A stretch of DNA of 41,959 nt from a virus (IMGVR_UViG_2690316153_000014:1-41959); one strand, 5' to 3'. Positions 11,154 to 38,612 are shown, counted from the stretch's first letter. The notes: generated from the letters alone by a model not told the origin. Program-made: numbers and translations.

Positions 11154-11189
11154 CGTAGGGTGCGTGGTTGACTACTCGTTAGCAAATAA

Positions 11190-11951
11190 TCAAATAGCTA
11201 AAGCATTCATCGTGTTGCCCGTATTCATACCCATGTGACTTTGACAACGGTACTCCTTAGAAACTCTCTTCGGACTGTTGCCGAAATGTTTGCGGAACGC
11301 ATAAATAAAATAAGATGTACTGGCATAACCACATTGTTCGGCAATTTTATTGACTGAACCTTCTACGCGTATCAAATTTTTTGCGTGCTGCATTCTGGCA
11401 TCTAATAGAATCTGTGAGAATGTCGTTTGCTCTTGCTTTAGTTTTTTCTTCAACAGGCTTTCACTGATGTACAGGCAGTCACAAATATCTTTCAGCTTCC
11501 ATGGGTGCGCCAGCTTCATGTTGACAATATTTCTCACTTTCCCGGAAACGGATAGCACACCGTTAGTTAATAGTGTAATGAAACCTTTGCATGCGGCAAA
11601 AATAGACAGGCAAGAAAAAAGCAAAAGTTCTGAAAAATTATGATGATTGCGTTCTTCCGAGTTGAGATAAGCAATCATTTCATTAAGCAATCCAGTCGGT
11701 ACATTTGAAGCACGTAAAAACTTCGCAGGAACAGGCATCGTCACTGTCTGGATGTTAGTGCATTGTAGATATTTTTTAATGGTATTTTCATTAAATCCGA
11801 TTTCTTTAAAATGCCGCTCATAAGGTTCAAAATGTGTACGAACAGCGTTATCTACCATCAGGATCTCGCCGTCAGAGAAGGCGTAATCTTTATCTAAAAT
11901 GTTAGCGTTGAAAGCATGATGAATAAATATGACAGAACAAACGAGCGACAT
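11190..11951 (-). CDS. ydeO: AraC-family acid-resistance transcriptional regulator YdeO
   Basis: 253-aa ORF with a C-terminal AraC-type HTH region; conserved position downstream of safA. Confidence 0.9.
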   Translation of the reverse strand: MSLVCSVIFIHHAFNANILDKDYAFSDGEILMVDNAVRTHFEPYERHFKEIGFNENTIKKYLQCTNIQTVTMPVPAKFLRASNVPTGLLNEMIAYLNSEERNHHNFSELLLFSCLSIFAACKGFITLLTNGVLSVSGKVRNIVNMKLAHPWKLKDICDCLYISESLLKKKLKQEQTTFSQILLDARMQHAKNLIRVEGSVNKIAEQCGYASTSYFIYAFRKHFGNSPKRVSKEYRCQSHMGMNTGNTMNALAI

Positions 11952-12025
11952 TTTATCTCCTTAAAACAATAAAGTTTTTATCGATACTTTGTTAACATTT
12001 CAGATTTATAATTTGCTGTTTATTA

Positions 12026-12223
12026 TCAGTCTTGCAAACTATTGATAATGAAATGTGTAAGATCTCTTGCAATGCGACCCATTTCTGAAATACCCAGCTG
12101 ATCAATTGCCGAAAAAATGGCTATCAACGTAAGGGTCAGTAATAAGACAACCACAATTACAGACATGATTTCTTTATAGTTGTCTCTTTGCGTGATTTTG
12201 TTTTTCACTGTGGTCGCATGCAT
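12026..12223 (-). CDS. safA: small membrane connector protein SafA (EvgS/EvgA to PhoQ/PhoP)
   Basis: 65-aa ORF MHATTVKNKITQRDNYKEIMSVIVVVLLLTLTLIAIFSAIDQLGISEMGRIARDLTHFIINSLQD with one transmembrane helix; directly upstream of ydeO. Confidence 0.85.
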   Translation of the reverse strand: MHATTVKNKITQRDNYKEIMSVIVVVLLLTLTLIAIFSAIDQLGISEMGRIARDLTHFIINSLQD

Positions 12224-12334
12224 TTCAAATATGTTTATTTAGCGGATAACGTTAAAAATCGTTAATCAGTATGCTTAATATAACAGGCTGGAGAAAAGAG
12301 GAAATAGGACTGGCACTTCAGTACTGAGCGGAGT

Positions 12335-12352
12335 TTCTTACAGCTGTAGGCA
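12335..12352 (-). promoter_or_regulatory. EvgA box upstream of safA-ydeO
   Basis: TTCTTACA-GC-TGTAGGCA matches the EvgA consensus TTCYTACA-N2-TGTRGGAA; about 110 bp upstream of the safA start. Confidence 0.65.
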
Positions 12353-12470
12353 GAGGTTTATATCTTATAGTATGTAGTTTAATTTAATCCATGTGAGCAA
12401 ATTGCGCGATAATAGTCAATGAGGGATTCTTCTGCTGTGCGGATGACAGCAGAAGAAATGAGAAGAGGCA

Positions 12471-14750
12471 TTAATTTGATGGTTCTAATTCAACCGGAAT
12501 ACTTTTATAGCCAGGAATGCCACTTAATGGATCGTGGTTATCGAGTGTTAGCATGTGATTCGATTCTGGAAAATAGGTCACCAGTGAGCGGTCAGCCATA
12601 GGGTAAATGACCACTTTTAATCTATCCATGCGGCGTGAGCTACGTTTACCGTCTGGCGTGAGCGCAATAAGATTAACTCTTTCGCCGTTTTTTACACGGC
12701 AAATTTTAGCTTGTTTAGCACTCATAAAGACCACATCTCGTTGACCGAATACCCCTCGATAGCGATCATCCATACCATAAATCGTCGTGTTGTACTGATC
12801 GTGGCTGCGTACTGTCGCCATGACCAGCTTACTGTTAAACGCTGAAGAGGGATCTTCTAACAGCCCTTTGCTGGTAATGAAATTAGCCTTACCTGACGGC
12901 GTCATCCAGCGCCTTTCAGCAGCTGCATTTATCAGGTGAAAACCACCGGGATGACGGATGCGTTGGTTATAGTCGGCGAACTCTGGCAGCACAGCTTCAA
13001 TGTCATTGCGAATGCGATCATAATCTTCCACCAGATACTCCCAGGCTACCACGCTCTGGGGTAGTGCTGCCTGCGCGATTCCCGCGACCACTGCACACTC
13101 TGATTTCAGCATTACACCGGCGGGTTTTAACACGCCACGCGAGGCATGAATCATCGACATTGAATCCTCAACGGTTACCGCCTGCGCACCGCTTTTTTGC
13201 ATGTCAATCTCGCTACGTCCCAGAACCGGCAGAATATAGCTATGCCGTGCGGTCAGCAGATGAGAGCGGTTAAGCTTAGTGGCTACGTGTACCGCCAGAT
13301 CTAATTGCGTTAACGGTACAGCGCTCGCTTCCCGATCTGGCATTGCCAGTGCAAAGTTGCCCCCCATGCAGATCAATGCTCGAGCCTGCCCTGTACATAT
13401 TGCTTGCATGCTGGCAATTGCAGCATGTCCAGGTGCTTGAGGTGGTGTGAAGCCATAGCGCTCACCCAGGCGAGCCAGAAACTCTGCAGACGGTTTCTCG
13501 GTGATACCGACGGTTCGGTCGCCCTGTACATTAGAGTGGCCACGTAGTGGGCAGATACCCGCACCAGGCTTGCCAATGTTACCTTTCATCAACAGCAGAT
13601 TGACCAGTTGCTGTACATTCTGGGTACCATGTTCGTGCTGAGTGATCCCCATTCCGTAACAGATAATGGTGCGTTCGGCAGCGGCATATGCGTCAGCCAG
13701 TTCGGCGATTTGTGTCTGACTTAGTCCAGAAATACGTTCGATATCTTTCCACTCGGAATTGAGAACGTCACGGCGTAGCTCGTCAAAGCCGACGGTATGC
13801 GTTTGAATAAATTCGTCATCAAGCAATGAGGGCCGACCTGCGGCACTTGCAGCATCATCGCGCTCAATTAACAGGCGCATCATCCCCTTGAGCAACGCCA
13901 TATCGCCACCAATGCGCACGTTGTAGTAGGCACTGGCCAACTGAGTCTCAGAGTTCGTCAGCATTTCAAACGGGTTTTGCGGTGCGGTAAATCGCTCCAG
14001 GCCACGTTCCTGTAGAGGATTGATGGCGATCATTTTCGCTCCCCGTTTCACTAAAGCGCGCAACGAAGTCAGCATGCGAGGGTGGTTTGTACCAGGGTTA
14101 TGCCCAATGCAAATGACTAAATCGCACTTCTCAAAGTCTTCCAGCAACACAGTCCCTTTACCCACGCCGATACTCGCTGCCAAACCCACACTGGTCGGTT
14201 CATGGCACATGTTGGAGCAGTCGGGAAAGTTATTGCTCCCGTATTCACGGGCAAAAAGCTGATAAAGAAAGGCAGCTTCATTGGAAGTGCGGCCCGAAGT
14301 ATAGAATTCAACCTGATTGGGATCACTATAGCTTTGAAGGCGTGCGCCAATTTCGTCGAAAGCTTGTTGCCAGCTTAATGGCTTGTAACAGTCGCTGACG
14401 GCATCATATTTCAAAGGCTGAGTGAGACGTCCCGCAGCCTCAAGCTCGTGATCTCCCCAGGTAAGTAATGATTGAACCGTATTCTCAGCAAAGAAAGAGG
14501 CATTTACCTGCTTATCCGTGACTTCCCAGGCGATTGCTTTTGCGCCGTTTTCACAAATGTCGAATGACGCACTGTGCTTAGGATCTGGCCATGCACAACC
14601 CGGACAGTCAAAGCCCTCTGGCTTATTCATGTCAAACATGGCAATAACATCCTGGCGTATATCCATCTGCTTACGTACTGCATTCGCTACGGATTTAACA
14701 GCACCCCAACCACCTGCAGCACCCTGGTAGGATTCAATTTTTTTCTTCAT
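12471..14750 (-). CDS. ydeP: molybdopterin-dependent oxidoreductase YdeP (acid-resistance protein)
   Basis: 759-aa ORF with formate-dehydrogenase-like molybdopterin oxidoreductase features (N-terminal Cys cluster CPGCAWPDP); length and position match YdeP. Confidence 0.9.
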
Positions 14751-19809: not shown

Positions 19810-20295
19810 TTACTGCATGGTTGCCTTAATACGCGGAGTTAATGCACCGTAATCATTGATCGTCTGAAAACTGATATCCCCGGTTGCAGCATGCGGGATA
19901 TCCACCGATACTTCACCTTTTGGCGGCACCATGGTGTTTGGGAGATTGCTATTTCCTGCTTTCATATTTGTTACGGTAATGAAGTAGGGCGTTGGATTAA
20001 TAAGAGTGAGTTTGCTACCGCTGCGACGAAACCGAAGCATTGCTGGCGCTTCTTCAGGTGCCATTGCCAGGTTCGTGGGGCGATAAAACATTTTTATGCG
20101 GCTAATAATTGCCAGCTGTAATGTATTCTCATTCTTCTGGTCTTTTTCCATAGCAGGAATAGCTTTAACATTCACCCAGAACAGGCTTTCACGGTCGCCT
20201 GGTAACTGATGATTAGTAGCGTTGATTATCCGCAGCGTATTCTCTTTTTTACCTTGCATGGAAAAAAGCGGTGGGGTAATGACAAACTGGGTGTC
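19810..20295 (-). pseudogene. periplasmic fimbrial chaperone (FimC family), 5'-truncated by IS3
   Basis: Frame is open from the IS3 boundary (reads [48 protein letters not shown]...). It matches only the C-terminal two thirds of FimC-type chaperones, with no start codon, signal peptide or N-terminal domain. Confidence 0.75.
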
Positions 20296-20351
20296 TGATC
20301 TTACCCAGCAATAGTGGACACGCGGCTAAGTGAGTAAACTCTCAGTCAGAG

Positions 20352-20660
20352 GTGACTCACATGACAAAAACAGTATCAACCAGTAAAAAACCCCGTAAAC
20401 AGCATTCGCCTGAATTTCGCAGTGAAGCCCTGAAGCTTGCTGAACGCATCGGTGTTACTGCCGCAGCCCGTGAACTCAGCCTGTATGAATCACAGCTCTA
20501 CAACTGGCGCAGTAAACAGCAAAATCAGCAGACGTCTTCTGAACGTGAACTGGAGATGTCTACCGAGATTGCACGTCTCAAACGCCAGCTGGCAGAACGG
20601 GATGAAGAGCTGGCTATCCTCCAAAAGGCCGCGACATACTTCGCGAAGCGCCTGAAATGA
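20352..20660 (+). CDS. insE: IS3 OrfA (InsE-type HTH transposase subunit)
   Basis: 99-aa [34 protein letters not shown]... with HTH and leucine-zipper-like C-terminus. Confidence 0.9.
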
Positions 20661-21523
20661 AGTATGTCTTTATTGAAAAACATCAGGCTGAGTTCAGCAT
20701 CAAAGCAATGTGCCGCGTGCTCCGGGTGGCCCGCAGCGGCTGGTATACGTGGTGTCAGCGGCGGACAAGGATAAGCACGCGTCAGCAGTTCCGCCAACAC
20801 TGCGACAGCGTTGTCCTCGCGGCTTTTACCCGGTCAAAACAGCGTTACGGTGCCCCACGCCTGACGGATGAACTGCGTGCTCAGGGTTACCCCTTTAACG
20901 TAAAAACCGTGGCGGCAAGCCTGCGCCGTCAGGGACTGAGGGCAAAGGCCTCCCGGAAGTTCAGCCCGGTCAGCTACCGCGCACACGGCCTGCCTGTGTC
21001 AGAAAATCTGTTGGAGCAGGATTTTTACGCCAGTGGCCCGAACCAGAAGTGGGCAGGAGACATCACGTACTTACGTACAGATGAAGGCTGGCTGTATCTG
21101 GCAGTGGTCATTGACCTGTGGTCACGTGCCGTTATTGGCTGGTCAATGTCGCCACGCATGACGGCGCAACTGGCCTGCGATGCCCTGCAGATGGCGCTGT
21201 GGCGGCGTAAGAGGCCCCGGAACGTTATCGTTCACACGGACCGTGGAGGCCAGTACTGTTCAGCAGATTATCAGGCGCAACTGAAGCGGCATAATCTGCG
21301 TGGAAGTATGAGCGCAAAAGGTTGCTGCTACGATAATGCCTGCGTGGAAAGCTTCTTTCATTCGCTGAAAGTGGAATGTATCCATGGAGAACACTTTATC
21401 AGCCGGGAAATAATGCGGGCAACGGTGTTTAATTATATCGAATGTGATTACAATCGGTGGCGGCGGCACAGTTGGTGTGGCGGCCTCAGTCCGGAACAAT
21501 TTGAAAACAAGAACCTCGCTTAG
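20657..21523 (+). CDS. insF: IS3 OrfB (InsF-type DDE transposase catalytic subunit); start overlaps the orfA stop (ATGA)
   Basis: 288-aa ORF with an RNase-H-fold DDE integrase core; the overlap with orfA fits the usual IS3 -1 frameshift fusion arrangement. Confidence 0.9.
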
Positions 21524-21674
21524 GCCTGTGTCCATATTACGTGGGTAGGATCACGCAGGGGTCGGCCCATTTGAGCTTCAGATAGGAACGTTTGAATTCC
21601 TTTCACAAAATACATCACATACTGAACGTGAACATTCCCACTTTGATCTTAAGGCCAAAAAGTATGCAGGACTA

Positions 21675-23393
21675 ATGATTTTTAGGGATAGCTTGAGAGT
21701 ATTACCTTATGGTCGAGTAGATAATGATTTCTTCCAGATAGAAGAAAGACGTTCATGGAATGCTGGGCGATATTATTGGTCTAATAGAAGGATTTTTGGT
21801 TATATTGGAATTACTCAATCCAGTAATAAAGAGCTGAAAGATAAGTCGGGGAGAGAGGGATTCATAAGAAACCAGGCTGCAAGAGAACTGAAAACTATTA
21901 TATCTAATTTGTTAACTGAACTTGCTGATAGATTTTTTGGTTCACGTTCTGATGACCGTAAAGAGCTTTTAGAACAAGTTAAGCGTGAAAAAGAGTTAAG
22001 AAAATCTGCTCAACAACAAGCTCGAAAATCAACACAAAAAAGTTTTTCAGAAGCTTTGAAGAATCAGACACCAGTTCTTGATGCTTCCTTGGAGGCTGTT
22101 AAAAGGCTGAAAACTAAGCTTGATAAAACTGATGGTTCGTTAGATTTAAACTATCTTAAAATTATAGACAGTGATCTTACAAACTTAGATGCGTTGCGCA
22201 GTGAAATTAAAACGCCTATCAAACCTCCAAAACTTGGAATGTATGAAGAGAAATATAGAGACTACAGAGATAAATTTAATGAGTTCTCTGCGTATATTCT
22301 ACAAATGAAGTTAGCAATTAATAAACTTGATTCTGAATTAAATAAACTTGAGCCTTCATTGTCAGCGAAAAATCACCTTGAAAAAAATCAAGGTATTATT
22401 AATTCTAAACTAACTAAGTTTAATAACACGATAGAGGAGAAGATACATTCTCTTTTAAAAAAATGGGCCGATGAAATAAAGGTTGATCGAAGTGATTATT
22501 ATGCTAAAACTATATCAGTTGTTGATTCAATAGATAATGATTCACAAATTGAAAATGTGTTTAATTTGCTCGATAGTTTATATGTTGAGTCAGTTGATAC
22601 CCTAACTTTCAAATATCAATCAATAATAAAAGGTCTCGATAGATTATTTGAAGGTATAAACTTAGATTCAGCATTCTCATTATCTGAAGAAGAACGCTCA
22701 TATTTTGAAGAAAAAGCTAAAAGTTTAAACGCGCTTGCACAGTTAGGTATTAGTGTTGAGATAATATCTCATGAACTTGAAGAAATGGATTCTATGGTAA
22801 CCAGAGGACTAAACTCTCTTCCTACTTCTGTAAAAGAACACCCTGGTTTTTCATTGGCGTTAAATGCTCACAGATCGCTTACTCAACAAATACGTTTCTT
22901 ATCACCTTTGAAAATATCAGGTTATCAATCCAGGCAGAGAATAACTGGAAAAAATATCATGGATTATGTCCTGAAGTTCTTTGGGGAGCGTTTCGAACGG
23001 CAACGAATAACTATTGAATTTAGTGAAGAGTTTAAGCAAATCGCAATAACAGATATACCATCAAGGATCTATCCTGTTTTTACTAATATTATCAACAATG
23101 CAATGTATTGGGTCAGTCTGTCAAATAATAGGCTCATAAAGATTGGTTTTGTGAATTCTTTGGTTATCATAGCAAATTCTGGTCCGGCAATTGATACCGA
23201 TGATATCCCGCGACTATTTGAACTATTTTATAGCAAAAGAGCAAATGGACATGGGGTAGGTCTGTATCTATGTCGAGAAAACCTTGCTGTTGCACATCAT
23301 AAAATATGGTATTCAGAACCTGATGAAGGCGATAACTATTTAATAAAAGATGGCGCTAATTTTGTGATCCAGTTCAATGGAGTGGAGTTCTAA
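21675..23393 (+). CDS. cytoplasmic histidine-kinase-like protein (coiled-coil N-terminal region, H-box-like ISHELEEM, C-terminal HATPase_c/GHKL domain); possibly 5'-truncated by IS3
   Basis: C-terminus carries N box (VFTNIINNAMYWV), G1 (IIANSGPAIDTDD), F (LFELFYSKR) and G2 (GHGVGLYLC) motifs. No transmembrane segment. The frame stays open upstream of the ATG back into the IS3 right end (stop at 21546-21548). AT-rich codon usage. Confidence 0.6.
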   Translation: MIFRDSLRVLPYGRVDNDFFQIEERRSWNAGRYYWSNRRIFGYIGITQSSNKELKDKSGREGFIRNQAARELKTIISNLLTELADRFFGSRSDDRKELLEQVKREKELRKSAQQQARKSTQKSFSEALKNQTPVLDASLEAVKRLKTKLDKTDGSLDLNYLKIIDSDLTNLDALRSEIKTPIKPPKLGMYEEKYRDYRDKFNEFSAYILQMKLAINKLDSELNKLEPSLSAKNHLEKNQGIINSKLTKFNNTIEEKIHSLLKKWADEIKVDRSDYYAKTISVVDSIDNDSQIENVFNLLDSLYVESVDTLTFKYQSIIKGLDRLFEGINLDSAFSLSEEERSYFEEKAKSLNALAQLGISVEIISHELEEMDSMVTRGLNSLPTSVKEHPGFSLALNAHRSLTQQIRFLSPLKISGYQSRQRITGKNIMDYVLKFFGERFERQRITIEFSEEFKQIAITDIPSRIYPVFTNIINNAMYWVSLSNNRLIKIGFVNSLVIIANSGPAIDTDDIPRLFELFYSKRANGHGVGLYLCRENLAVAHHKIWYSEPDEGDNYLIKDGANFVIQFNGVEF

Positions 23394-23394
23394 T

Positions 23395-25143
23395 ATGACA
23401 GTGGCAAATTATAATTCTCTTGTCCAGAAAACTTTCTGCGAAAATGCAATTCGTTCCGTTGTCATGATTGATGACGATTTTCTGACGTATTCTGAATCAA
23501 TCAGGGCGTTGAATAACGAAGTTGATTTAGACTACAACAAAATTGACTCATCTAAACGAGCCGCTACTCTTGAGAGCTTTTTTCAATCTAAAAATATGAT
23601 TTGTGATGTTGACAATGGTTCTGTTAATTTCGATGTGGATCGGATTAGAAAATCAGATCTTATTATTGTAGATTATCATCTTGATAATAATGCACCTGAT
23701 AAAACACTTAAACTATTACAAGATTTGAAAGACTCCGATCATTTAAATATGATTGTAATATATACTAGAGAGAATTTAGAAACGGTTTGGATGCAGATAT
23801 CATCGACTCTCAAAGGTGCTCTGGATATCAACAGCTTGATCATTGACTACGATAATGAAGATGTCCAAAGTTATTGGGAAGACGTTGTATTACCGAACTT
23901 AAATGATAATGGTAATAAAGCTCTCACAAGAGATGAAACAATAGCCTATATTAAAGACAGTAAGCCTTGTAGAAGAATTAAAAGATTAATACATGATGAT
24001 GCTGTGTTGGAGGATCAAAAGGATAAAAACTTCATTGCAAAAATGATTGCAGAATATGCTGTGTCTAGAAATGCAATTATTTCTAGCAACACATCTGGCA
24101 ATGTCATTCGGGGTGATGAAAGCGGAGTAAAATGGATTCAATGTGGTAATATCTTTGTCTCCCTATTTCATAAGGTTCAAGATGATCATGAAAACGATGG
24201 AGATAGGATTTGGCAAACTCTCAATGATTCTCTCATTGAATGGAAACCATCTTATTATCAGTTAATAAAATCTGAAATTCAGAATGCAATCGAAGCTGAG
24301 GCTTTATCTTTTGTAAATCATTTGGCTAACGATCATTACGGTCAAGCTGCGTGGTTAAATGAGATATTAAAATCAGACTCGCCTGATATTAGATGTAGAA
24401 ATATTGACTTTGTATTTGGTAATTTATCAGAAGAGCTTTATCAAAGACTTAAAAATAATAATACGCTGGATGAATTTATCAAAAGTGTTTTTGATAGCTA
24501 TTCAAATGAATACGCTAACAGCGGAGTTGCTGCATTGCTCCAATATTGCTCTTCAAAAATGGATCTGCCATCAAATAATGATACTTATCACGAAATGTAT
24601 CATGCTTTAAATATGAATTTGTCTTCAAAGAATTTTGAAGATGGTCATATTTCTACTGGCACTATTTTCTTTGATACAGAGTCGAACAAATGGTATTTAT
24701 GTGTATCTGCGGCATGTGATTTGGTTCCTACTCAGGGTAACGACCCTCACCATGTAAGATTAAGTCCGCACAGGCTCATTAAAGTTCTGGAGCTTTTTAA
24801 CGCCAGTCAGAGTAAAGCATTGCCATTTGCTGAACATTCGAAATATATATATGTAATGCATAAAAATCAAAGAAAATATCTCTCTATTTTCGAAGGGGAT
24901 AAAACGCTTCCTGTTGTTGATTATATGGTGGTGTTGAATCATGGAACAACAGTTGATGGCGAAGAAAAAAATATTATTTCTGCCGTGTTTTTAAGTAATA
25001 TGGATGGCAACGTGCAAAATGTTCCTGTCCGACTCAAACTTAAATCTCAACTGAGAACTGGTTATGCAGAAAGATATCAGGCTATAGCGTCTCAGTATAG
25101 CTCAAGGATTGGTGTGGATTATGTATCAATGATGCTACCATAA
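23395..25143 (+). CDS. response-regulator-like protein: N-terminal receiver (REC) domain plus a roughly 440-aa C-terminal domain of unknown function
   Basis: REC hallmarks: acidic cluster VVMIDDDF, candidate phospho-acceptor Asp in LIIVDYHLD, conserved Thr in MIVIYTRE. GGAG Shine-Dalgarno 7 nt upstream; the ATG lies 2 nt after the kinase stop (an alternative in-frame ATG is at 23377). I recognise no DNA-binding or enzymatic motif in the C-terminal domain. Confidence 0.6.
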   Translation: MTVANYNSLVQKTFCENAIRSVVMIDDDFLTYSESIRALNNEVDLDYNKIDSSKRAATLESFFQSKNMICDVDNGSVNFDVDRIRKSDLIIVDYHLDNNAPDKTLKLLQDLKDSDHLNMIVIYTRENLETVWMQISSTLKGALDINSLIIDYDNEDVQSYWEDVVLPNLNDNGNKALTRDETIAYIKDSKPCRRIKRLIHDDAVLEDQKDKNFIAKMIAEYAVSRNAIISSNTSGNVIRGDESGVKWIQCGNIFVSLFHKVQDDHENDGDRIWQTLNDSLIEWKPSYYQLIKSEIQNAIEAEALSFVNHLANDHYGQAAWLNEILKSDSPDIRCRNIDFVFGNLSEELYQRLKNNNTLDEFIKSVFDSYSNEYANSGVAALLQYCSSKMDLPSNNDTYHEMYHALNMNLSSKNFEDGHISTGTIFFDTESNKWYLCVSAACDLVPTQGNDPHHVRLSPHRLIKVLELFNASQSKALPFAEHSKYIYVMHKNQRKYLSIFEGDKTLPVVDYMVVLNHGTTVDGEEKNIISAVFLSNMDGNVQNVPVRLKLKSQLRTGYAERYQAIASQYSSRIGVDYVSMMLP

Positions 25144-25215
25144 TTATTATATTTTAGGCGTGGTGATTTTTTTTTCGCCATGCCTATTTTATATTTATCA
25201 TCACAATGATGTTGT

Positions 25216-25632
25216 TTATTTTTGTTTAAGTCTTCTAAGCTTCATGCATTCTAATGAGAATAATAATAGAGTTGTGCTGTATATAAAGCCAGAGTTAGTT
25301 AATAACTTTAAATTTAATGCTTCAGGATTTTCACTGAGAAAGTGAAAGGCATAAACTAAGTATACAGCTAAAGTAGCCGTTCCAATTGTTGGTCCAATAT
25401 CGCCTTGATCATGAGGTTCAAGGTTTACATTGAACTTGAAGATTAGCCATTCAAATCCCCAAGTAAAAAAAACAACTAATATCATGGCTGCGAATAATTT
25501 CGCGATGTTATCTGCTGATGGATTCATCAGAACAGATTGTTTCTGAAAAAATTCACAAAGTGAGAGTCCGAAAAAAATAAAAAAAAGTGGTCTGGAACTA
25601 AATTTTTCAAAAACTTTGAATAGGGTTTCCAT
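25216..25632 (-). CDS. small integral membrane protein (about 4 predicted TM helices), unknown function
   Basis: 138-aa ORF with four hydrophobic stretches; AT-rich; sits between the REC-protein gene and the integrase. Confidence 0.45.
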   Translation of the reverse strand: METLFKVFEKFSSRPLFFIFFGLSLCEFFQKQSVLMNPSADNIAKLFAAMILVVFFTWGFEWLIFKFNVNLEPHDQGDIGPTIGTATLAVYLVYAFHFLSENPEALNLKLLTNSGFIYSTTLLLFSLECMKLRRLKQK

Positions 25633-25670
25633 TTTCTTTACCTTCAGGATTATATTAGCTATTCTGATAC

Positions 25671-26900
25671 TTAGGCTACCAGAGCATTTGATCTTTGAGC
25701 TTGAACGTAATCACTCCACCATTGCATCAAACTCTGTCGCTCTATCAGATATTCTGCACGATTGTATGCTGCGATAATTTCATCTTTTTTCGAGTGGGCA
25801 AGCGCTGCCTCAAGAACTTCAGCTCTGAATTTACCAGACTCCTCTGCCGCTGTTCGTGCAATAGAACGCATACCGTGAGCTACAAGCTCGCCTCCGAACC
25901 CCATTCGGATGATAGCTGCGTTGGCTGTTTGTTCATGCATATGATTAAGAGGCGCTTTTATGCTGGGGAAAACCCATTCTCTATGCCCACTTATTGATTT
26001 CATTAATTCAAGGATGCGCAAAGCTTCTTTACTCAAAGGAACTTTGTGAAGCTTTTTCATTTTCATGAAATCAGCAGGAATGTTCCAAATGCTGTTGGTT
26101 GTATCAATATCAGACCACCTTGCGCGAACGGCTTCACCCGGACGAACCCATGTCAACAATTGCCATTCAATTAGCATACGTGTTTCCAACCGGATTGACG
26201 CATTCGTCAAAGATTCCATAAACCTTGGCAATTCGCTTGGGGGAAGGGCAGGCATATTTTGCTTTTTTGGTTTACTGAATCTTTGACCAAGGTTGTCAGC
26301 CGGGTTGAACTCAATAAGTTCTTCAGTAGCTGCCCACCGGAAGATTTCATTCAGACGTGAAATGATACGGCGTAGAGTTTCCAATACGCCTCGTTGCTCA
26401 ATAGGATCAAGGTGTTGTTTTAAGAGCTTAGGTCGGATCTCATTGATAGGGACATTACCCAGACCGGGAAAGACATTTCTCTCTAAGCTGCGCCAGATGT
26501 CTGCTGCATGGTCTTGTGAGATACCTGATGTCTTTACCTTCTCATCTAACCATTTCCGCGCTACGGCTTGGAGAGTGTGCTCAGTAGCACTCTTTAATGC
26601 CTTCGCCTTATCGTTGTTATGGATTTGGGGATCAACACCATTTGCCAGAAAGGAGAGATATTCATCACGTAAGGCTCTGGCTCTTGCAAGGGTAAGGTGA
26701 GGATATGTCCCAAGGCTCATTTTGGTTCTTTTCTTGCTCACTGGTACTGTATACCTGAAATACCAATTTTTCTTGCCTCCTTTCGCCAAAGGAGCGATTC
26801 GTAGAATCAGACCATCACCGTCAAACAAGTTGATTTCTTTATCGGCTGGCTTGGTGCTTTTGATTTCAGTGTCAGTGAGCTTCTTAGCGATTTTTGCCAT
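25671..26900 (-). CDS. P4-type (CP4-57 IntA-like) tyrosine integrase
   Basis: N-terminal arm-binding region MAKIAKKLTDTEIKSTKPADKEINLFDGDGL...WYFRY and C-terminal catalytic region with HxxR and terminal Tyr. Start set at the Met with a GAGG Shine-Dalgarno (track ORF begins 14 codons earlier at 26942). Confidence 0.8.
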   Translation of the reverse strand: MAKIAKKLTDTEIKSTKPADKEINLFDGDGLILRIAPLAKGGKKNWYFRYTVPVSKKRTKMSLGTYPHLTLARARALRDEYLSFLANGVDPQIHNNDKAKALKSATEHTLQAVARKWLDEKVKTSGISQDHAADIWRSLERNVFPGLGNVPINEIRPKLLKQHLDPIEQRGVLETLRRIISRLNEIFRWAATEELIEFNPADNLGQRFSKPKKQNMPALPPSELPRFMESLTNASIRLETRMLIEWQLLTWVRPGEAVRARWSDIDTTNSIWNIPADFMKMKKLHKVPLSKEALRILELMKSISGHREWVFPSIKAPLNHMHEQTANAAIIRMGFGGELVAHGMRSIARTAAEESGKFRAEVLEAALAHSKKDEIIAAYNRAEYLIERQSLMQWWSDYVQAQRSNALVA

Positions 26901-27065
26901 TTTGGGACCCTCGGTTTTTGGACCCTTCTTAGTGGGTCCCATTCAGGGTGCCATAACTCGTAGTTCTCAGCAATTCTCACTGGACGACAATAGACGTAAA
27001 AAAGCCCGCAGAGCTTGTGCTGTGTGGGCTTAGTAGACTTCATTGAACTTCAAACAACTAAAAAG

Positions 27066-27100
27066 TGGTGGAGCTGGCGGGAGTTGAACCCGTATCCGAA
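27066..27100 (-). repeat. attachment-site-like repeat resembling the 3' end of ssrA (tmRNA), not a complete RNA gene
   Basis: Reverse complement reads TTCGGATACGGGTTCAACTCCCGCCAGCTCCACCA (T-arm, acceptor 3' strand, CCA), close to the E. coli ssrA 3' end as I remember it. Upstream sequence has no tag-coding or 5' acceptor region. Lies 166 bp upstream of the P4-type integrase start. Confidence 0.6.
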
Positions 27101-27358
27101 AAATTCTTAACCAATTGAATATTAATGATTTTTCTAATTTAAAATACCTCACGTGCATTTTACGTGCATATTGTAGTACCTCTAACGTCCTGATTCTGTC
27201 CAACATTTTGAAGTGTTTAGGCGCCACTGGGGCGGTGATTAGCGCTGTTTTGTGCTGTTCATAGCACTTCAAGACTATTCAATTCAGAGCAATCGTTGAA
27301 GAATTACCCGTAAGGTAATATCATACTATTTAGGTAACTGCGGTTATCACCATCAAGG

Positions 27359-27394
27359 GCCACTGATGACGCTGTTATCATCAGTGGCTTTTTG
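27359..27394 (+). terminator. strong plus-strand intrinsic terminator (perfect 11-bp stem) upstream of the two-gene cassette
   Basis: GCCACTGATGA (27359-27369), 8-nt loop, TCATCAGTGGC (27378-27388), then TTTTT. No U-run on the opposite strand. Confidence 0.55.
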
Positions 27395-27435
27395 TACCTT
27401 CACTGCACAGCCAGTGAAGTGTTGAGGAGACTAGC

Positions 27436-27777
27436 ATGAGAACAGTAGCGAGAAGATCGATACAGACGATTGAGCGTCGGACTCAACTCGTCAGTTCTTT
27501 TGTTGACTCAAACACAGCAAACGAGTTCTTCGTGAGAAGACTGAGTGATCGTGTCTCCCCGGCACGTCAGCTGTTTATTGTGACATTGAACAATGAGGTT
27601 CGTGACGGTGACGTGATCCCGTTCGCTGAGATCGCCATGAACAAAGAAAAATTGCGCTATGTTGTGAAGCCAGCAGATCAGTATCCTCAGTATGTAAGCA
27701 GTAATCTGCTGAAGAAAATTGAAGCGGCAATTGCTCTATACATGCAGAAGAACTACAGGGAAATTAACTACCATTAA
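27436..27777 (+). CDS. hypothetical protein (113 aa), first gene of a two-gene cassette
   Basis: ORF preceded by GAGGAG Shine-Dalgarno (27424-27429); 11-bp gap to the next gene; I recognise no motif. Confidence 0.5.
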   Translation: MRTVARRSIQTIERRTQLVSSFVDSNTANEFFVRRLSDRVSPARQLFIVTLNNEVRDGDVIPFAEIAMNKEKLRYVVKPADQYPQYVSSNLLKKIEAAIALYMQKNYREINYH

Positions 27778-27788
27778 AAGGTTGCTGA

Positions 27789-28556
27789 ATGGCTCCTGCG
27801 TTAATACCTTCATATAACAAGGACTTGAACATTACGCCATTTGGCGAAAAACGTCTTATTGAGTCATTCTATTTTTTCACTGCCGAGGCTGGCTTACTGA
27901 GGGCTGATGAGTACATTGTCAGTTCTGGTGAGTTTCAGTACTACTTGGATGTGTATCAACTGGGATGTTCCACCGACGACTTTTTTTTAGACTATGGCAG
28001 TGACCTTCTTGATTCGAAGGTTCCAATGCAGGATCTGGTCAATACCCTCTTGGGTCTTGATATGGTAGACGATAACAAAACGATAAGAATAGGTCGTATA
28101 CAGTTCAACGACTTTAATTTTATCGAAGAGAACGGTCAGATGATGACCGGAAAGCAAGTGAAAAGCGCTGTTATCGCACAGGATTTCCAATCAGCAGGTT
28201 TGGCGCGTGAGATCTATAAAATGCTTGCGCGAAAGCATGAGTTTCTCATCTGCGATAACATTCAAAGTATTGCCGGTGGTGCTCTTTGGGCTAGTAGCAT
28301 CATTCGAATTGCCGAGGTACGGATCTACAATTCACGCACGAAGAAATTTATGGACATACTTGGTCCAGGTGCGCGTGGCGTTTCAGGTACTTTGCCATGG
28401 AGTGCGAATGATCTGTCTGTAGATGAGATTGTTCGCTGGGGTCGTGCGTATGATGATGAAAACTGTTGTCGTCACATTGTACATGTTATCTGTAAGGACC
28501 GACTCATTGACGATCAATTTCATGATTATGTTTCGATAGGTGGCGCGACAGAATAA
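27789..28556 (+). CDS. hypothetical protein (255 aa), second gene of the cassette
   Basis: Coding-like composition, tightly linked to the upstream ORF, followed by a terminator; no recognised domain. Confidence 0.5.
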   Translation: MAPALIPSYNKDLNITPFGEKRLIESFYFFTAEAGLLRADEYIVSSGEFQYYLDVYQLGCSTDDFFLDYGSDLLDSKVPMQDLVNTLLGLDMVDDNKTIRIGRIQFNDFNFIEENGQMMTGKQVKSAVIAQDFQSAGLAREIYKMLARKHEFLICDNIQSIAGGALWASSIIRIAEVRIYNSRTKKFMDILGPGARGVSGTLPWSANDLSVDEIVRWGRAYDDENCCRHIVHVICKDRLIDDQFHDYVSIGGATE

Positions 28557-28561
28557 CCATC

Positions 28562-28590
28562 AAAAAGACCCGGCATTTGCCGGGTTTTTT
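28562..28590. terminator. bidirectional intrinsic terminator between the cassette and the prophage integrase
   Basis: A-run, stem ACCCGGC/GCCGGGT (28568-28574 with 28579-28585), loop ATTT, T-run; works on both strands. Confidence 0.65.
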
Positions 28591-28597
28591 CTTCAAA

Positions 28598-29776
28598 TCA
28601 CTTCTTCATTCCAGATTCCATTGCGGTTTTCCCGTCGTATTCAGCCAGGTATTTACCGTAATTGCGGAACAGCATTTCCGGCCCCTTATGCCCCATCTGC
28701 CCGGCAAGCCAGAAAAGGTTTACACCCTGGCTAATGTGTCTGGTGGCGAATGTGTGGCGCGTCTGGTACGGGTTACGGTAGCGCACACCAGCTTTTTTCA
28801 GGGTCGGCACCCATGCTTTTTTACGGATAGCGTCGGCGTTCGTCCAGGGATCTCCCGTTTTCGGATCGCTGAATATGAACTCACTTTTCATAAAGGTGTA
28901 TTGCTTCTGCGCCTGCAGGGCCGCCAGCGCCTCACTGTTCAGCTCCACCTTACGGGTACCGGCTTTTGTCTTGGTGCCTTTAAGTACCCCTACGACACTG
29001 GCCGCCTGTATGTGCGCTGTATTACCTATAAAGTCGATATCGGTCCAACGTAATGCGCATAGCTCAGAGCTGCGTAGCCCTGTATTGAAGGCGAAGCGGA
29101 ACAGATTCTGCCATTCCTGATACTTGCAGTGCTGATATATGGCACTGGTTTCCGCAGGCGCAAACGGATCAACTTCGTAATCGTCGGCGTTCGGTTTACT
29201 GTCGACCACGTGATACCGGCTGGCGCTGACAAGAGTTACCGGGTTAATAGTCAACAGGCCATCAGTTACAGCCTCATCAATGGCGCTGCGCAGAAATGAC
29301 AGGTTATTCCTGATTGTTTTCAGCTTAGTTTTTCGGCTGGCTATCCAATTTTTTAGTACCGCAGGCGTCAATTCTGTTACATGTAGTTTATGTAGTTCTG
29401 ATAGTGCTGATAGACATTTTTCGTAACCGCCAATGGTTGACGGCGACAGATTGCGGTTCATGCAAATTTTCAGGTATTCATCAAGATAGGACTTAATATT
29501 TTTGGTTTTCTTTACTACACCGAATAACTCCAGTTTTTTGGAACTGGGGAAATATTTCGCATATTCAAACGTTCCGCTGGCGATCTGATTTTGTATCTCC
29601 CCTAGCAGGCGCTCAGCATATTTAATACCACGTGTATTTGCCTCAAGCCGAGACAGGGGCTCCCTGCAAAGAACCCCTTTATATGTGAAAGTGATAACTA
29701 GTGTTGAAGCAGTTTTATGCTTACGAATAGTTACTCCTCTTGGCAGAGATAATAATCCTTGTTCTTTCTTGCCCAT
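28598..29776 (-). CDS. lambdoid prophage tyrosine integrase
   Basis: 392-aa ORF with catalytic-domain residues (R in LRSSELCALRW, HTFATRH, terminal Tyr region); an excisionase-like ORF overlaps its start, as in lambda int-xis. Confidence 0.8.
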   Translation of the reverse strand: MGKKEQGLLSLPRGVTIRKHKTASTLVITFTYKGVLCREPLSRLEANTRGIKYAERLLGEIQNQIASGTFEYAKYFPSSKKLELFGVVKKTKNIKSYLDEYLKICMNRNLSPSTIGGYEKCLSALSELHKLHVTELTPAVLKNWIASRKTKLKTIRNNLSFLRSAIDEAVTDGLLTINPVTLVSASRYHVVDSKPNADDYEVDPFAPAETSAIYQHCKYQEWQNLFRFAFNTGLRSSELCALRWTDIDFIGNTAHIQAASVVGVLKGTKTKAGTRKVELNSEALAALQAQKQYTFMKSEFIFSDPKTGDPWTNADAIRKKAWVPTLKKAGVRYRNPYQTRHTFATRHISQGVNLFWLAGQMGHKGPEMLFRNYGKYLAEYDGKTAMESGMKK

Positions 29777-29940
29777 TTTGAAACCTCTATTAAGTCGACC
29801 CAGCGTTCTTTAACTCCGTCGACTTTTAATACATGAACCCCTTCTTTCCATATTCCTCTTTGTATCCGTTTGTTAACGGCATCAACCGTTTCTCCCGCGT
29901 CGCGGCAGTAGGTTGATATAGGCACGCAATCCAGCCCCAT
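29731..29940 (-). CDS. putative excisionase (Xis-like)
   Basis: 69-aa ORF overlapping the integrase start by 46 nt; small basic winged-helix-like composition; called from position only. Confidence 0.45.
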   Translation of the reverse strand: MGLDCVPISTYCRDAGETVDAVNKRIQRGIWKEGVHVLKVDGVKERWVDLIEVSKWARKNKDYYLCQEE

Positions 29941-30098
29941 ACATCACCTCACATAACACTCAGCCCACGGCAGTGGCACCACACGTCAAACATTCGCTTC
30001 ACAACTTCACGACAGTAGAAGCCGTCAACATCTCGCGTCAGGTCATAGCGATTGCCGTAACGCTGGTGGACCCATTGTTCAAATGCTTTATTCATTCT

Positions 30099-30377
30099 TT
30101 ACTTCCTTTTTATGGCTCGTAATTTTTTCAGGTGCTTTTCCTGCTCAGTGTCCGCGAGAATTTTGCGGTACTCCTGGTGGTCAATATGTTCGAACAGGCA
30201 GTTTAACTCACCAATGCGTACCCGCCCGGATCGTCCGTCCATCCGTCGAAAGAACACTGAGTGCTCAGTGATGCGAGTAATCACCACGGGGTATCCGGCT
30301 CTGTCCGTGTATATCTGACCGCGTTGAATCAAAGCGAACATGTGGTTATCCCCATCGACAAATTGAGAACACAACAA
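30099..30377 (-). CDS. hypothetical prophage early protein
   Basis: Minus-strand ORF in the early-left gene string; no recognised motif; start uncertain. Confidence 0.35.
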   Translation of the reverse strand: MLCSQFVDGDNHMFALIQRGQIYTDRAGYPVVITRITEHSVFFRRMDGRSGRVRIGELNCLFEHIDHQEYRKILADTEQEKHLKKLRAIKRK

Positions 30378-30464
30378 ACGCTACTGCGAATACCACCCCC
30401 AGAGTTACGATTGCATCAGGCCAGCTCATTGATTCACCTCCTGCGGCGTCCTGGTATTCGATTT

Positions 30465-31033
30465 TCATTCCGGATGCTCCTGAGCCACATTGAAATCGCC
30501 ATGATCACGACAAGGCATCACAACAAATTCAGGATTGCCATACATTGAGTTGATGATGGAATCAAACTGAATTCTGACCGCTTGCCCGTCACCGGAGGAA
30601 CGTAACTGGACGGGAATAAATTTACGCTCACGACCAAACATCTTCTCTGGATAACTCAGGTAACCCGCCTGGATCACCGGGTGTGTACAGAGGTCAAATT
30701 TTTTCGGAATGATGCGTTCCAAATCCGGAAAACAACCGTCCACCAATTTAATGCCGGTAATGGACAGCCGGCGCTGAAACTGGTCGCGATGAACAGGATC
30801 GGCTCTTTACTAAAAATCAGCTCTGTCGTTTCGGCTTTGGCCGGGACGCCACCTTCGAACTGGACAATGATGTTTTTCTTCGTCCGGATGCCGTGAGTCA
30901 TGCGCAGTGCTACGAAACCATTGGTTGCCTCAATATGTTTTGGCGTGATGTGAAGACCGTTCAGGTAATAACGAACGTCGTTTTTAGCAGCGCACACCAG
31001 AGCGGCGCGAATAAGTTTTGACTGGATGATCAT
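30465..31033 (-). pseudogene. beta-sliding-clamp (DnaN)-like gene covering clamp domains II-III, split by a frameshift (track ORFs 30674..31033 and 30465..30746)
   Basis: Upstream ORF contains DVRYYLNG and ATNG (DnaN has HQDVRYYLNG and ATDGHRLAV). Downstream ORF, in another frame and open upstream to 30806, contains KLVDGCFPDLERIIPK and EFVVMPCRD (DnaN has KLVDGRFPDYRRVLPK and C-terminal AYVVMPMRL). The two frames overlap by about 70 nt. Confidence 0.5.
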
Positions 31034-31779
31034 GCTTTATCCTCCCATCCGATTACCTGAAAAAGCCCCATCTTCGGGTGATACCAGCGTGTGCCGCGTG
31101 GTTCAGCCTCTGACATCATTTGGTGGAACGCCGCCATAAATGTCTCAAGCTCGACGACAGCCCTGCGAGACAACAGACCGTCCGGAGTCATAAATTCGTG
31201 CGTGTCGGTAGGGATGTGGTAGGCGTTGACCAGATTCCGACACTTGGCGTCACTCATTCCGCTTTTGGCTACCACCTGGCGGTAACCGACATATCCGGTG
31301 CGCATTGTGCCGCGTTTGATGTTCTCCACAGCTTTGGTGACCGTTTCGATCTTCTCTTCAACATGACTCAGGCGCTTCTGCTGGCGAACGGCATCGGCGG
31401 CCATTGCAGCGATCATCTCCATTTCCGTCAGCGGCGCGTGAGTTCGGAAATAGCTGTTAACCAGTTCGCGCTGAACCTGCCATGCAAGAGCATCGTTAAA
31501 AGGCTTCGTCAACATCAGGTAACCAGACTCGAAAAGAATGATCCCTTTGGCAGTTCGCGCGGCAAAGGCATCAGAAAGTGACTCCGTACGTATTACGTCC
31601 GCAGTCATTTCAAGAAAATCCACCCCTTCGATAAAGTGAGAACGGTTGCGGTTAAACGCAGCACGGGCGGTACCTTCCGGGCGCTGGTGGACGTCATCAA
31701 TTATTGCAAATGTCACAACACGCTGACCGCGATATTCGATTACCGGAAACTGTTTGTTGTTGATGGTTACAATATTCAT
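31030..31779 (-). CDS. phage antirepressor-like protein (ORF6N/AntA-type N-terminal domain)
   Basis: ORF starting MNIVTINNKQFPVIEYRGQRVVTFAIIDDVHQRPEGTARAAFNRNRSHFIEGVDF... with GGAG Shine-Dalgarno; domain call from motif resemblance only. Confidence 0.4.
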   Translation of the reverse strand: MNIVTINNKQFPVIEYRGQRVVTFAIIDDVHQRPEGTARAAFNRNRSHFIEGVDFLEMTADVIRTESLSDAFAARTAKGIILFESGYLMLTKPFNDALAWQVQRELVNSYFRTHAPLTEMEMIAAMAADAVRQQKRLSHVEEKIETVTKAVENIKRGTMRTGYVGYRQVVAKSGMSDAKCRNLVNAYHIPTDTHEFMTPDGLLSRRAVVELETFMAAFHQMMSEAEPRGTRWYHPKMGLFQVIGWEDKA

Positions 31780-31822
31780 TTTTATCTCCAGACAGCCCGG
31801 CGTGTAATACCGGGCATATGTA

Positions 31823-32650
31823 TTACTTAACCTGAATAAATGGTGTGTTGGCACCGCTGGTCATGTATTGCGGCAGTGTACCGTTCCACTTGTTGATGGC
31901 TTCCAGCTCCATAACACCGGGGTTCTGGCGCAGAGCTTCACCGCGTAAACGAATAGCATCGGCTTCGGCCTGGGCTTTTGTGCGAATCGCATCTGCCTGT
32001 CCGGCAGCTTCCGCGCGCAACATGTTGGCTTCCGCTTCGCGCTGTTTTACTTCCTGCTCGCGTTGCAGGGTTTTCTGGTTCGCCGTGACTTTGGCATTAA
32101 TGCTGTCGATAACAGTAGGTGGGTACTCCGGCTTACCCACATATGAGAGGCTCATTACCTGAATACCGATGGGCGTCATTTCTTCCTGAATGTCTTTAAG
32201 AGCTGCATCCAGCAGCTCAGACTTGCCGCCGTCGATAAATTTGTCGGTGGTCATTTTGCTGGCCAGTCGGTTGAGTGCGTCGGCTATCTTCTGGCGCAGG
32301 TCGGTGTCGGTAATGTCGTCCACGCCTTTGCGGTAGGTCTGAAAGACTGTGGTAACTTTGGATGGATCAACTTTGTAGGCCACGCCGATGTGATAGCCGA
32401 TGGTTGTACCGTCACTCATCTGGAAACTGAATGGATCATCGTAGGTCTTCATCTGCTTAAAGGTCGGGAAGATGTAAACCTCAGTGTTCCATCCCGTCCA
32501 GTAGCGCCCAACACCGACCACTTCACCGACGCCTTTATCGTCGCCCAGTTTGTTTACTTTGATGCCCACATTACCAGGCTCAACGCGATCGCAACCGACA
32601 AGGCCAATGGTCGGCAGAACAAGGGCTAAAGCAAAAAGTAATTTTTTCAT
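31823..32650 (-). CDS. SPFH/band-7 family lipoprotein
   Basis: Lipoprotein signal peptide with lipobox (LVGC), then a prohibitin-like region and an Ala/Glu/Gln-rich coiled-coil tail. Confidence 0.55.
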   Translation of the reverse strand: MKKLLFALALVLPTIGLVGCDRVEPGNVGIKVNKLGDDKGVGEVVGVGRYWTGWNTEVYIFPTFKQMKTYDDPFSFQMSDGTTIGYHIGVAYKVDPSKVTTVFQTYRKGVDDITDTDLRQKIADALNRLASKMTTDKFIDGGKSELLDAALKDIQEEMTPIGIQVMSLSYVGKPEYPPTVIDSINAKVTANQKTLQREQEVKQREAEANMLRAEAAGQADAIRTKAQAEADAIRLRGEALRQNPGVMELEAINKWNGTLPQYMTSGANTPFIQVK

Positions 32651-32835
32651 CTTTTATCCTTAGAAAAAGAAAGACCCTTATAAATGGCATAAATGCAGGG
32701 CGGGGTCAGACACGCCAGAGCAAAGCCAGAAATCACTGCTACCGTATCCTTCATTGATATGAGGGCCGGAACGATTAATCCGTAAATACATGTGATAATT
32801 GCCAGTGATATAACTATTCTGAAATAAATGTTCAT
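32647..32835 (-). CDS. small two-helix membrane protein, translationally coupled to the SPFH gene
   Basis: 62-aa hydrophobic ORF whose stop overlaps the SPFH start (ATGA). Confidence 0.4.
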   Translation of the reverse strand: MNIYFRIVISLAIITCIYGLIVPALISMKDTVAVISGFALACLTPPCIYAIYKGLSFSKDKR

Positions 32836-32895
32836 GGTCCTCCTGATGTATTCGGCTTGCCTTATTTAATTGCGTCATGGTTAATTTCGTTTACG

Positions 32896-33288
32896 TCAGA
32901 ATGGTTTTGTTGCCATCAGTTCGTAATATCCGGCGCTCCATGTGTCATATTTTCTGAACCATTTTTCTGTATACTGTTTCCTGGCGATGAGTCTGCGCAG
33001 TCGTCTGATTGTTCGCTGGTGTGCGCGGGTATACTCTGTGGTTGATTCTCCACGTTTCCATATCTCATTCCTGTTGAAGATAAAACGCTTGTCAGGATAG
33101 CGTTGTCGGAATCCTGAACGTTCAAAAGCGCGGGTGGTCATAAAGAATGCCAGGTAACGAATTGCCGTTTTTCGGGTGAGGCATTTTTTTGTTCTTCCGT
33201 GGCGTGTTACAAAAAATAACGGGCCGACGGGTGTATCATGTTTCTGTAATGCCTGGTCAATGGTGCTGGCGGTGCGGTTGTCGATCAT
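32896..33288 (-). CDS. hypothetical basic protein (prophage early region)
   Basis: 130-aa Arg/Lys-rich ORF in the minus-strand gene string; function unknown. Confidence 0.35.
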   Translation of the reverse strand: MIDNRTASTIDQALQKHDTPVGPLFFVTRHGRTKKCLTRKTAIRYLAFFMTTRAFERSGFRQRYPDKRFIFNRNEIWKRGESTTEYTRAHQRTIRRLRRLIARKQYTEKWFRKYDTWSAGYYELMATKPF

Positions 33289-33503
33289 TTCTTTATTTCT
33301 CCCGAATAACGTTTATGACTCATTACTTCCCAGTTCCGGCCGTCGTCTTTCGATAACAGCCGCCAGCGACGGTTAACCTTCAGACTGAGATATCCGGTGC
33401 GCTGTATCCGATGCGGAAATATCCGTCGGCATCGGTACAACAACAGGACCTGCAATGCCTGCCGGTGGATCCGCTCAGGAATGCGTGTTGCTGTTAATGC
33501 CAC
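33285..33503 (-). CDS. hypothetical protein
   Basis: 72-aa ORF with 4-nt overlap to the downstream gene; weak support. Confidence 0.25.
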   Translation of the reverse strand: MALTATRIPERIHRQALQVLLLYRCRRIFPHRIQRTGYLSLKVNRRWRLLSKDDGRNWEVMSHKRYSGEIKK

Positions 33504-35150: not shown

Positions 35151-35168
35151 GGGTTAAATGATTTTTGC

Positions 35169-38611: not shown

Positions 38612-38612
38612 G

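Follow-up and report, generated by a model that had tools for sequence, protein, structure and literature searches.

The locus described here raises the question of whether a kinase-like gene that begins a short distance beyond an IS3 element is a complete gene or the surviving end of a longer one, and, if the latter is the case, whether what has survived still works. The window, by which we mean the whole stretch of 41,959 nucleotides that was analysed, is E. coli DNA and contains one copy of IS3 and no second one. The features in the element and immediately beyond it are the following:

20296-21553, + strand: IS3, 1258 bp, with TGATC...GATCA ends
20352-20660, + strand: IS3 orfA
20657-21523, + strand: IS3 orfB
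21546-21548, + strand: TAG stop that closes the kinase-gene frame, within the IS3 right terminal repeat
21554-21674, + strand: leftover coding stretch without a start codon, corresponding to codons 377-416 of an ancestral 988-codon gene
21675-23393, + strand: gene annotated as a 572-aa 'ATP-binding protein' (WP_000577254.1), corresponding to ancestral residues 417-988

The element is 99.9% identical to IS3-annotated elements of RefSeq E. coli genomes and has the attributes by which the IS3 family is recognised, namely a length of ~1258 bp, TG...CA ends, imperfect terminal repeats, and orfA and orfB with a programmed frameshift. Direct comparison of its two ends yields 28 matches in 40 positions, and it is because of this imperfection that an automated repeat search reported no IS3 inverted repeats. 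The element is not surrounded by a 3-bp target duplication (the flanking triplets are GTC and CGC), as is expected if it reached its present setting through IS-mediated deletion or recombination and not through simple insertion.

An earlier, sequence-only reading of the window had noticed that the frame of the kinase-like gene is open from the TAG in the IS3 repeat to ATG 21675, and all of its coordinates check. There is no stop in this frame over 21549-21674 (42 codons), the ATG is the earliest ATG, GTG or TTG that the frame offers, and the nearest Shine-Dalgarno-like sequence, AGGA, lies at 21668-21671, 3 nt 5' of the ATG. Taken alone, the length of the open stretch is only mildly unusual: 7% of its mononucleotide shuffles are free of an in-frame stop, and, of the 29 ORFs in the window that reach 150 aa, one has an open leader of at least 42 codons ahead of its first start. 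The stretch can nevertheless be considered more than chance because of its homology to 988-aa proteins.

This homology emerged from a search of 5.8 billion proteins in which the query was the translation from 21555, the first full codon past IS3. Full-length homologues measure 975-998 aa and include proteins from Salmonella (P0003), Klebsiella aerogenes (P0005) and Serratia (P0006). The closest of them are 99% identical to the query across all of its 612 residues, 65 of the best 120 homologues are 950-1000 aa in size, and, among the matches listed, every homologue of at least 975 aa has in addition an N-terminal HATPase_c_3 domain (PF13589). Aligned with the full-length homologues, as the sequence-only reading had suggested, the window gene covers residues 377-988 of P0003 at 99% identity (607 of 613 residues are identical in the pairwise alignment over residues 376-988). 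The codons at 21555-21674, upstream of the annotated Met, are identical, 40 out of 40, to residues 377-416 of the 988-aa proteins, and with this match the reservation that the open frame could be a matter of chance falls away. At the level of DNA, the match to an intact Salmonella locus (L003) begins at 21553/21554, which is the last base of IS3, and the sequences are unrelated before that point. By these alignments, a gene of 988 codons has lost its first 376, and the kinase-like gene consists of the 612 that remain; ATG 21675 is evidently the internal Met417 codon of the ancestral gene, and the AGGA "Shine-Dalgarno" is, on the same grounds, merely its Ala-Gly codons GCA GGA. Translation of the remnant would be possible only from Met417. 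The suggestion that IS3 had cost the gene its N-terminus is therefore borne out, both by the 99%-identical 988-aa homologues and by the DNA break at the end of IS3.

The nature of the lost part can be read from the domains that Pfam assigns to the full-length protein:

residues 28-137 of full-length P0003: HATPase_c_3, a GHKL/MORC-type ATPase domain with the motif ELWKNAYDA
residues 772-830 of the full-length protein: HEF_HK
residues 878-969 of the full-length protein: HATPase_c

What had been imagined as perhaps a sensor domain is instead the GHKL ATPase HATPase_c_3, followed by about 240 further residues. This domain is present in the 99%-identical P0003, has no Pfam match in the window ORF and is absent from the entire window. 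Four intact loci, all of them Salmonella-type and situated in ssrA islands, have a gene for a C5 cytosine DNA methylase directly 5' of the 988-aa gene and overlapping it by 20 nt; on the 3' side come a gene for a 582-aa Response_reg_2 protein and then, on the opposite strand, genes for a 138-aa hypothetical protein and a P4-type integrase. The trio of methylase, 988-aa protein and 583-aa protein also occurs, at 72% identity and with other neighbours, in an E. coli conjugative element (ICE), and because it recurs in these different surroundings we take the three genes to be the unit. In the Salmonella locus L003 they occupy 8833-14717. Comparison of the loci shows the ancestral arrangement, a C5 methylase, a HATPase_c_3/HEF_HK/HATPase_c protein and a Response_reg_2 protein on a mobile ssrA island; by the same comparison, the parts removed from the window are the HATPase_c_3 GHKL module, which is paraMORC-like, and the upstream C5 methylase gene. 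No trace of the methylase or of the N-terminal part was found in the window by tblastn, and, at megablast sensitivity, not one of the 5426 complete genomes of E. coli was found to hold the DNA for both. The missing 5' part is consequently not to be found beside another IS3 copy, where the sequence-only reading had proposed to look for it.

Of the ancestral island, the window retains the kinase-core part of the gene, the receiver gene, the gene for the 138-aa hypothetical protein and the integrase:

22740-22916, + strand: HEF_HK DHp domain (PF19191, 26.2 bits against a cut-off of 24.1, E=1.1e-5)
23058-23333, + strand: HATPase_c domain (PF02518, 44.7 bits, E=2.1e-11)
23395-25143, + strand: intact Response_reg_2 (receiver-like) gene, 582 aa, partner of the kinase-like gene
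25216-25632, - strand: gene of the island for a 138-aa hypothetical protein, no Pfam match
25671-26900, - strand: P4-type tyrosine integrase of the ssrA island (Pfam Arm-DNA-bind_3, Phage_int_M and Phage_integrase)
27066-27101, - strand: repeat of the ssrA 3' end, ~36 nt identical (attachment-site repeat of the island), beyond which a second island begins

The kinase core in the window has the H-box SHELEE at residue 365 together with an N-box and a G-box, and the central region of the 572-aa protein is without a Pfam match. Weak similarities of the core to AtoS, PhoR and others in NCBIfam/HMM searches fall far below the respective cut-offs, matches to PDB entries are confined to the HATPase domain, and PADLOC has no model for the kinase-like or the receiver protein and gave a negligible match only. 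The Response_reg_2 gene is adjacent to the kinase-like gene and co-oriented with it, and its product keeps all of the invariant receiver residues (D26, D27, D93 and T124, with the window protein serving as reference) and has no DNA-binding output domain that could be recognised; conserved residues in its C-terminal part include C436, C441 and D442. P0128, a receiver protein of 453 aa whose cluster has 1605 members, gave the impression of a widespread truncated allele, but its record is labelled partial. The 138-aa gene is found in all of the ssrA-island loci, a different gene stands in its place in the ICE, and it probably lies outside the cassette. The integrase is annotated as 409 aa in related loci. 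Similarity to two of the ssrA loci (L001 and L003) stops at 27101, within the annotated ssrA, and no tmRNA gene was found in the window; from about 27066 (query base 67) onward the window is 99.9% identical to E. coli E110019, over 96% of the query in 4 pieces.

The remnant is present at 99% identity or higher in 561 of the 5426 complete E. coli genomes (~10%), in every case on the chromosome, and in 484 of the 5426 the junction between IS3 and the gene is identical. The right junction is constant across carriers and the left flank of IS3 is variable:

loci L001 and L012: 5'-truncated alpha-amylase gene
locus L002: glaH intergenic region
the window, 19810-20295, - strand: 3' portion of the PapD-type chaperone gene of the yde fimbrial operon, interrupted by the left end of IS3

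The strain E110019 displays the undeleted backbone, with ypjA, ypjC, tRNA-Ile, an uninterrupted amylase gene and glaH, and from it the extent of the original deletion can be delimited: with one end at codon 376 of the kinase-like gene and the other in the chromosomal alpha-amylase gene, it took out the remainder of the island in between. The distribution of the junction shows the IS3-linked deletion as an evidently old event in an ancestor of E. coli, one that fixed the joint between the right end of IS3 and codon 377. Several strains have changed further. In O111:H8 and related strains IS3 is gone and the same break is kept, the sequence reading ...gagatgcg up to the break and CGCAGGGG after it. 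In ET479, the gene has been shortened by another ~150 bp through IS1, and the annotation marks the receiver gene as frameshifted. In VE-T10, a 4-bp ATAC duplication in the leftover leader breaks the upstream frame and leaves the annotated protein unaffected. Taken at the level of sequence, this series shows an IS3 that kept remodelling its left side only and was excised in some strains.

The window's own left junction belongs to this variable side and gives grounds for suspecting that the IS3/kinase-gene junction is an artefact of assembly at a repeated IS3. The chaperone remnant matches Pfam PapD_N at profile positions 62-125 only, plus PapD_C, and in KSC1031 the chaperone gene is intact (711 nt), 100% identical to the remnant up to 20296 and located ~1.2 Mb from the ssrA island, so that the window joins regions which are that far apart in this strain; the yde chaperone::IS3 junction itself was found in 0 of 5426 complete genomes. 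Eleven genomes that seemingly shared it were discarded, since in them IS3 lies in the usher gene and the search had merged the pieces. The relevant junction is, however, the right one, which is the same in all 484 of the complete genomes counted above, and the same break remains where IS3 is absent; a chimera is possible at the left junction only, and genuine IS3-IS3 recombination explains that junction equally well. We regard the likelihood of an artefact at the kinase gene as practically nil. Hardly greater is the likelihood that ATG 21675 is the genuine start of a naturally short HEF_HK+HATPase_c gene, with a chance open frame upstream. Such a gene would agree with the 7% shuffle probability of the open stretch, with the RefSeq call of a complete 572-aa protein and with annotations from Pectobacterium, Klebsiella, Salmonella, Yersinia and Morganella, where proteins 83% identical to it have a length of exactly 572 aa. 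Homologues that start at the equivalent Met, which the sequence-only reading had named as evidence against a truncation, thus appear at first sight to exist. In the Klebsiella case (L007, the sole such locus examined), however, a 314-aa HATPase_c_3 fragment stands just 5' of the 572-aa ORF, and the two pieces together match a single 994-aa protein, the frame shifting at residue 309/310. The 572-aa homologue at this locus is one part of a frameshift-split gene and not a natural short form, and as such it does not speak against the truncation. The length of 572 would recur because, whatever the disruption further upstream, Met417 is the next start that the frame offers, as in the two cases examined; the 572-aa proteins of other genera would accordingly be independent pseudogene fragments. 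The naturally short gene is refuted by the 40/40 codon match and by the DNA breakpoint, which falls exactly at the end of IS3.

Whether the truncated gene and its partner retain a function depends on what the intact cassette does. A literature search found no experimental work on the methylase/988-aa/582-aa cassette. From its domain content and from published comparative work we infer that the methylase would mark self DNA, that the GHKL/paraMORC module would detect a DNA-related signal, that the kinase core would autophosphorylate the HEF_HK histidine and pass the phosphate to the Response_reg_2 aspartate, and that the phosphorylated receiver protein would turn on its own C-terminal effector domain. 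In the intact protein, the GHKL module presumably senses or clamps DNA. Because both the ATPase module and the self-marking methylase are gone, the most likely outcome is that the cassette has lost its function as a defence or restriction-modification-like system. The window copy is very probably a truncated remnant that no longer works as the original system and is subject to slow, ordinary gene decay, its two surviving ORFs being most likely a young, slowly decaying remnant.

A different view of the same locus, to which we give a small chance, is that the shortened kinase core still works together with the intact receiver protein, as a two-gene module that is transcribed from IS3 and selected in ~10% of E. 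coli, for example with a kinase that has no further need of the ATPase module. Transcription of the remnant would come from IS3, either by read-through or from P3R, the outward promoter that the element is reported to have (Kanai et al., bioRxiv 10.1101/2021.11.02.466885), and this suits a module of that kind. A promoter scan found no promoter-like site between IS3 and ATG 21675, and one weak site inside IS3, at 21385-21414, that is no better than chance expectation. The lineages without IS3, and hence without its promoter, still keep the remnant, however, and a Shine-Dalgarno spacing of 3 nt is poor, the motif being just coding sequence. Both ORFs are uninterrupted in most of the ~560 carriers, the H-box, the HATPase_c domain and the invariant receiver residues are all preserved, and HATPase_c_3 is likewise missing from the published "group 2" architectures (HEF_HK+HATPase_c, 34/222), which according to that study represent a form that "has lost" its N-terminal domain (PMC8011034). 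To be set against these points are the loss of the methylase and the ATPase module, the strain in which IS1 has cut further and the receiver gene is frameshifted too, and the finding that the sole short form examined in another genus is a split pseudogene.

The substitutions can be read in both directions. Compared with the Salmonella allele, the kinase part has 5 synonymous and 5 nonsynonymous differences (omega ~0.27) and the receiver gene 7 and 2, respectively (omega ~0.07), and the low value for the receiver counts in favour of a module; this divergence looks constrained, but most of it may predate the truncation. Among 10 E. coli loci, where the counts are tiny and the sample was partly chosen for low identity, the remnant has 5 nonsynonymous variants versus 1 synonymous, which weighs against a module, and the receiver gene has 3 versus 2, plus three frameshift-annotated alleles. 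These variants hint at relaxed constraint. The frameshift-annotated receiver alleles may be sequencing errors; one of the loci (L017) also has a frameshifted IS3. Somewhat more doubtful still is a methylase-independent module, driven by the outward promoter of IS3, in which the kinase without GHKL would control a receiver with a putative MazF/CcdB-like C-terminal fold. If it were true, ~10% of E. coli would carry a toxin or abortive-infection module that is regulated by phosphorylation and owes its origin to an IS.

The reading that we prefer, a decaying remnant, makes the case overall one of ordinary IS-mediated gene truncation in a degraded genomic island, and it has consequences for annotation. 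WP_000577254.1 and its relatives, which RefSeq calls complete as "ATP-binding protein", really comprise only the C-terminal 58% of the 988-aa protein, and a truncated-gene flag would suit them better; one 572-aa cluster alone has more than 2000 member sequences. Caution is also in order with regard to HEF_HK "short architectures", some of which are fragments generated by IS elements or frameshifts. The intact three-gene cassette on islands of Salmonella, Klebsiella and Serratia is a candidate defence system that is open to testing, and the E. coli remnant provides a natural loss-of-function comparison for it.

The closest known relatives of the two surviving genes are the HEF_HK and Response_reg_2 families defined by Bellieny-Rabelo, Pretorius & Moleleki in 2021 (PMC8011034). 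According to that study, conserved His, Asp, Thr and Lys positions characterise the pair, the genes are linked in 91.6% of cases, type II restriction-modification genes, especially C5 methylases, are enriched nearby, there is a relationship to paraMORC ATPases, and 83% of members have an N-terminal HATPase_c_3; IS elements, truncation and pseudogenes are never mentioned in it (PMC8011034). The window resembles the published pair in having both domains above the Pfam threshold in adjacent, co-oriented genes, and the architecture of its intact relatives is that of the predominant "group 1", HATPase_c_3+HEF_HK+HATPase_c, a C5 methylase gene lying directly 5'. The window copy differs in being without HATPase_c_3 and without the C5 methylase, through the IS3-linked deletion. 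Prokaryotic MORC-like (paraMORC) GHKL ATPases of restriction-modification systems were reportedly described by Iyer, Abhiman and Aravind in 2008, a study to which PMC8011034 and PMC12137116 refer. The ancestral protein is like them in its N-terminal HATPase_c_3, with GHKL motif I (ELWKNAYDA), and in adjoining a DNA methylase; it is unlike them in that its GHKL module, deleted in the window, forms one protein with a histidine-kinase core and has a receiver protein as partner.

Among systems with experimental support, the anti-phage system Ambrosia consists of five genes, for an XRE regulator, an N6-adenine methylase, a HATPase kinase, a REC-wHTH protein and an HNH nuclease, and all of its components plus the phospho-acceptor Asp of REC are required for defence (bioRxiv 10.1101/2025.09.30.679545). 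Compared by gene content, the intact cassette shares with Ambrosia a DNA methylase, a HATPase-type sensor kinase and a REC protein, but it has three genes, its methylase is of the C5 type, and it has no XRE or HNH component and no recognisable DNA-binding output domain. Ambrosia is the nearest experimentally tested analogue of the cassette, which by its gene set is not a member of that system.

As for the element itself, IS3 has reportedly been described as a mobile promoter by Charlier et al. in 1982. The locus is comparable to the insertion, deletion and excision of IS3 that Kanai et al. demonstrated experimentally (bioRxiv 10.1101/2021.11.02.466885), with the difference that at the window locus a gene was destroyed and no operon was formed. 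Natural isolates display every stage of this process, with deletions of varying extent on one side of the element, and together they offer a clean series of the three steps in nature.

The IS3 element at 20296-21553 connects the ydeP/ydeQRS fimbrial region (window 1-20295) with the ssrA island (21554-27101). Strain KSC1031 is 100% identical to the window up to 20296 and carries the chaperone gene of the yde fimbrial operon whole, at a distance of ~1.2 Mb from the island, and the junction between the chaperone gene and IS3 was found in none of 5426 complete E. coli genomes. The join between the fimbrial region and the island reflects either a strain-specific recombination between IS3 copies (an inversion or a translocation) or else a chimera of the assembly.

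On the right side of the window, similarity to the ssrA loci takes in ~36 nt of the 3' end of ssrA and ends at 27101; no tmRNA gene was detected by ARAGORN in the window. From ~27066 to 41959 the window is matched by strain E110019 in four pieces that cover 96% of the query at 99.9% identity, and this segment looks like a second island, with the following features:

28598-29776, minus strand: integrase
within 27066-41959: DEAD-box helicase and toprim protein

On this evidence, two islands seem to lie in tandem at ssrA.

The gene for the 988-aa kinase-like protein, of which the window retains the 3' 612 codons, has been disrupted in other ways elsewhere:

L007 4734-7719: copy of the gene, 83% identical, Klebsiella pneumoniae (CP141543.1)
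L010 3289-5696: IS1 in place of IS3, E. coli strain ET479

In the Klebsiella copy one frameshift, close to residue 309, has divided the gene into a 314-aa piece with HATPase_c_3 and an ORF of 572 aa, with the methylase and receiver genes both intact; the 572-aa annotations in several other genera may have arisen in the same way. Given such recurrent disruption, the gene might be costly. At the IS1 of ET479 the remnant is shortened by a further ~150 bp, so that it begins at about window position 21700, the left-hand deletion extends to gabT, and the annotation gives the receiver gene a frameshift. In O111:H8 strains and their relatives (L008 near 4010, L009 near 4000) the IS3 that lay between the amylase fragment and the truncated gene is gone, and the junction reads ...gagatgcg joined to CGCAGGGG, with cg in place of ttatct, six bases of the former left flank. 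This is a natural case of imprecise IS3 excision following an IS3-linked deletion.

Mobile elements of at least two kinds carry the intact cassette, and a toxin-antitoxin pair adjoins the remnant island in KSC1031:

L003 1-10020: Salmonella, ssrA-integrated island with relaxase and extra tyrosine recombinases, adjoining bapA
L015 1-6019: E. coli, conjugative element with TraI, TraG, TraU and ArdC, carrying a 72%-identical allele
L012 10669-11839: KSC1031, DarT/NADAR pair

In KSC1031 the integrase of the remnant island is split, and the island is followed not by ssrA but by the DarTG-like DarT/NADAR pair, an arrangement that is a further sign of the stacking of defence islands at the ssrA-island site.
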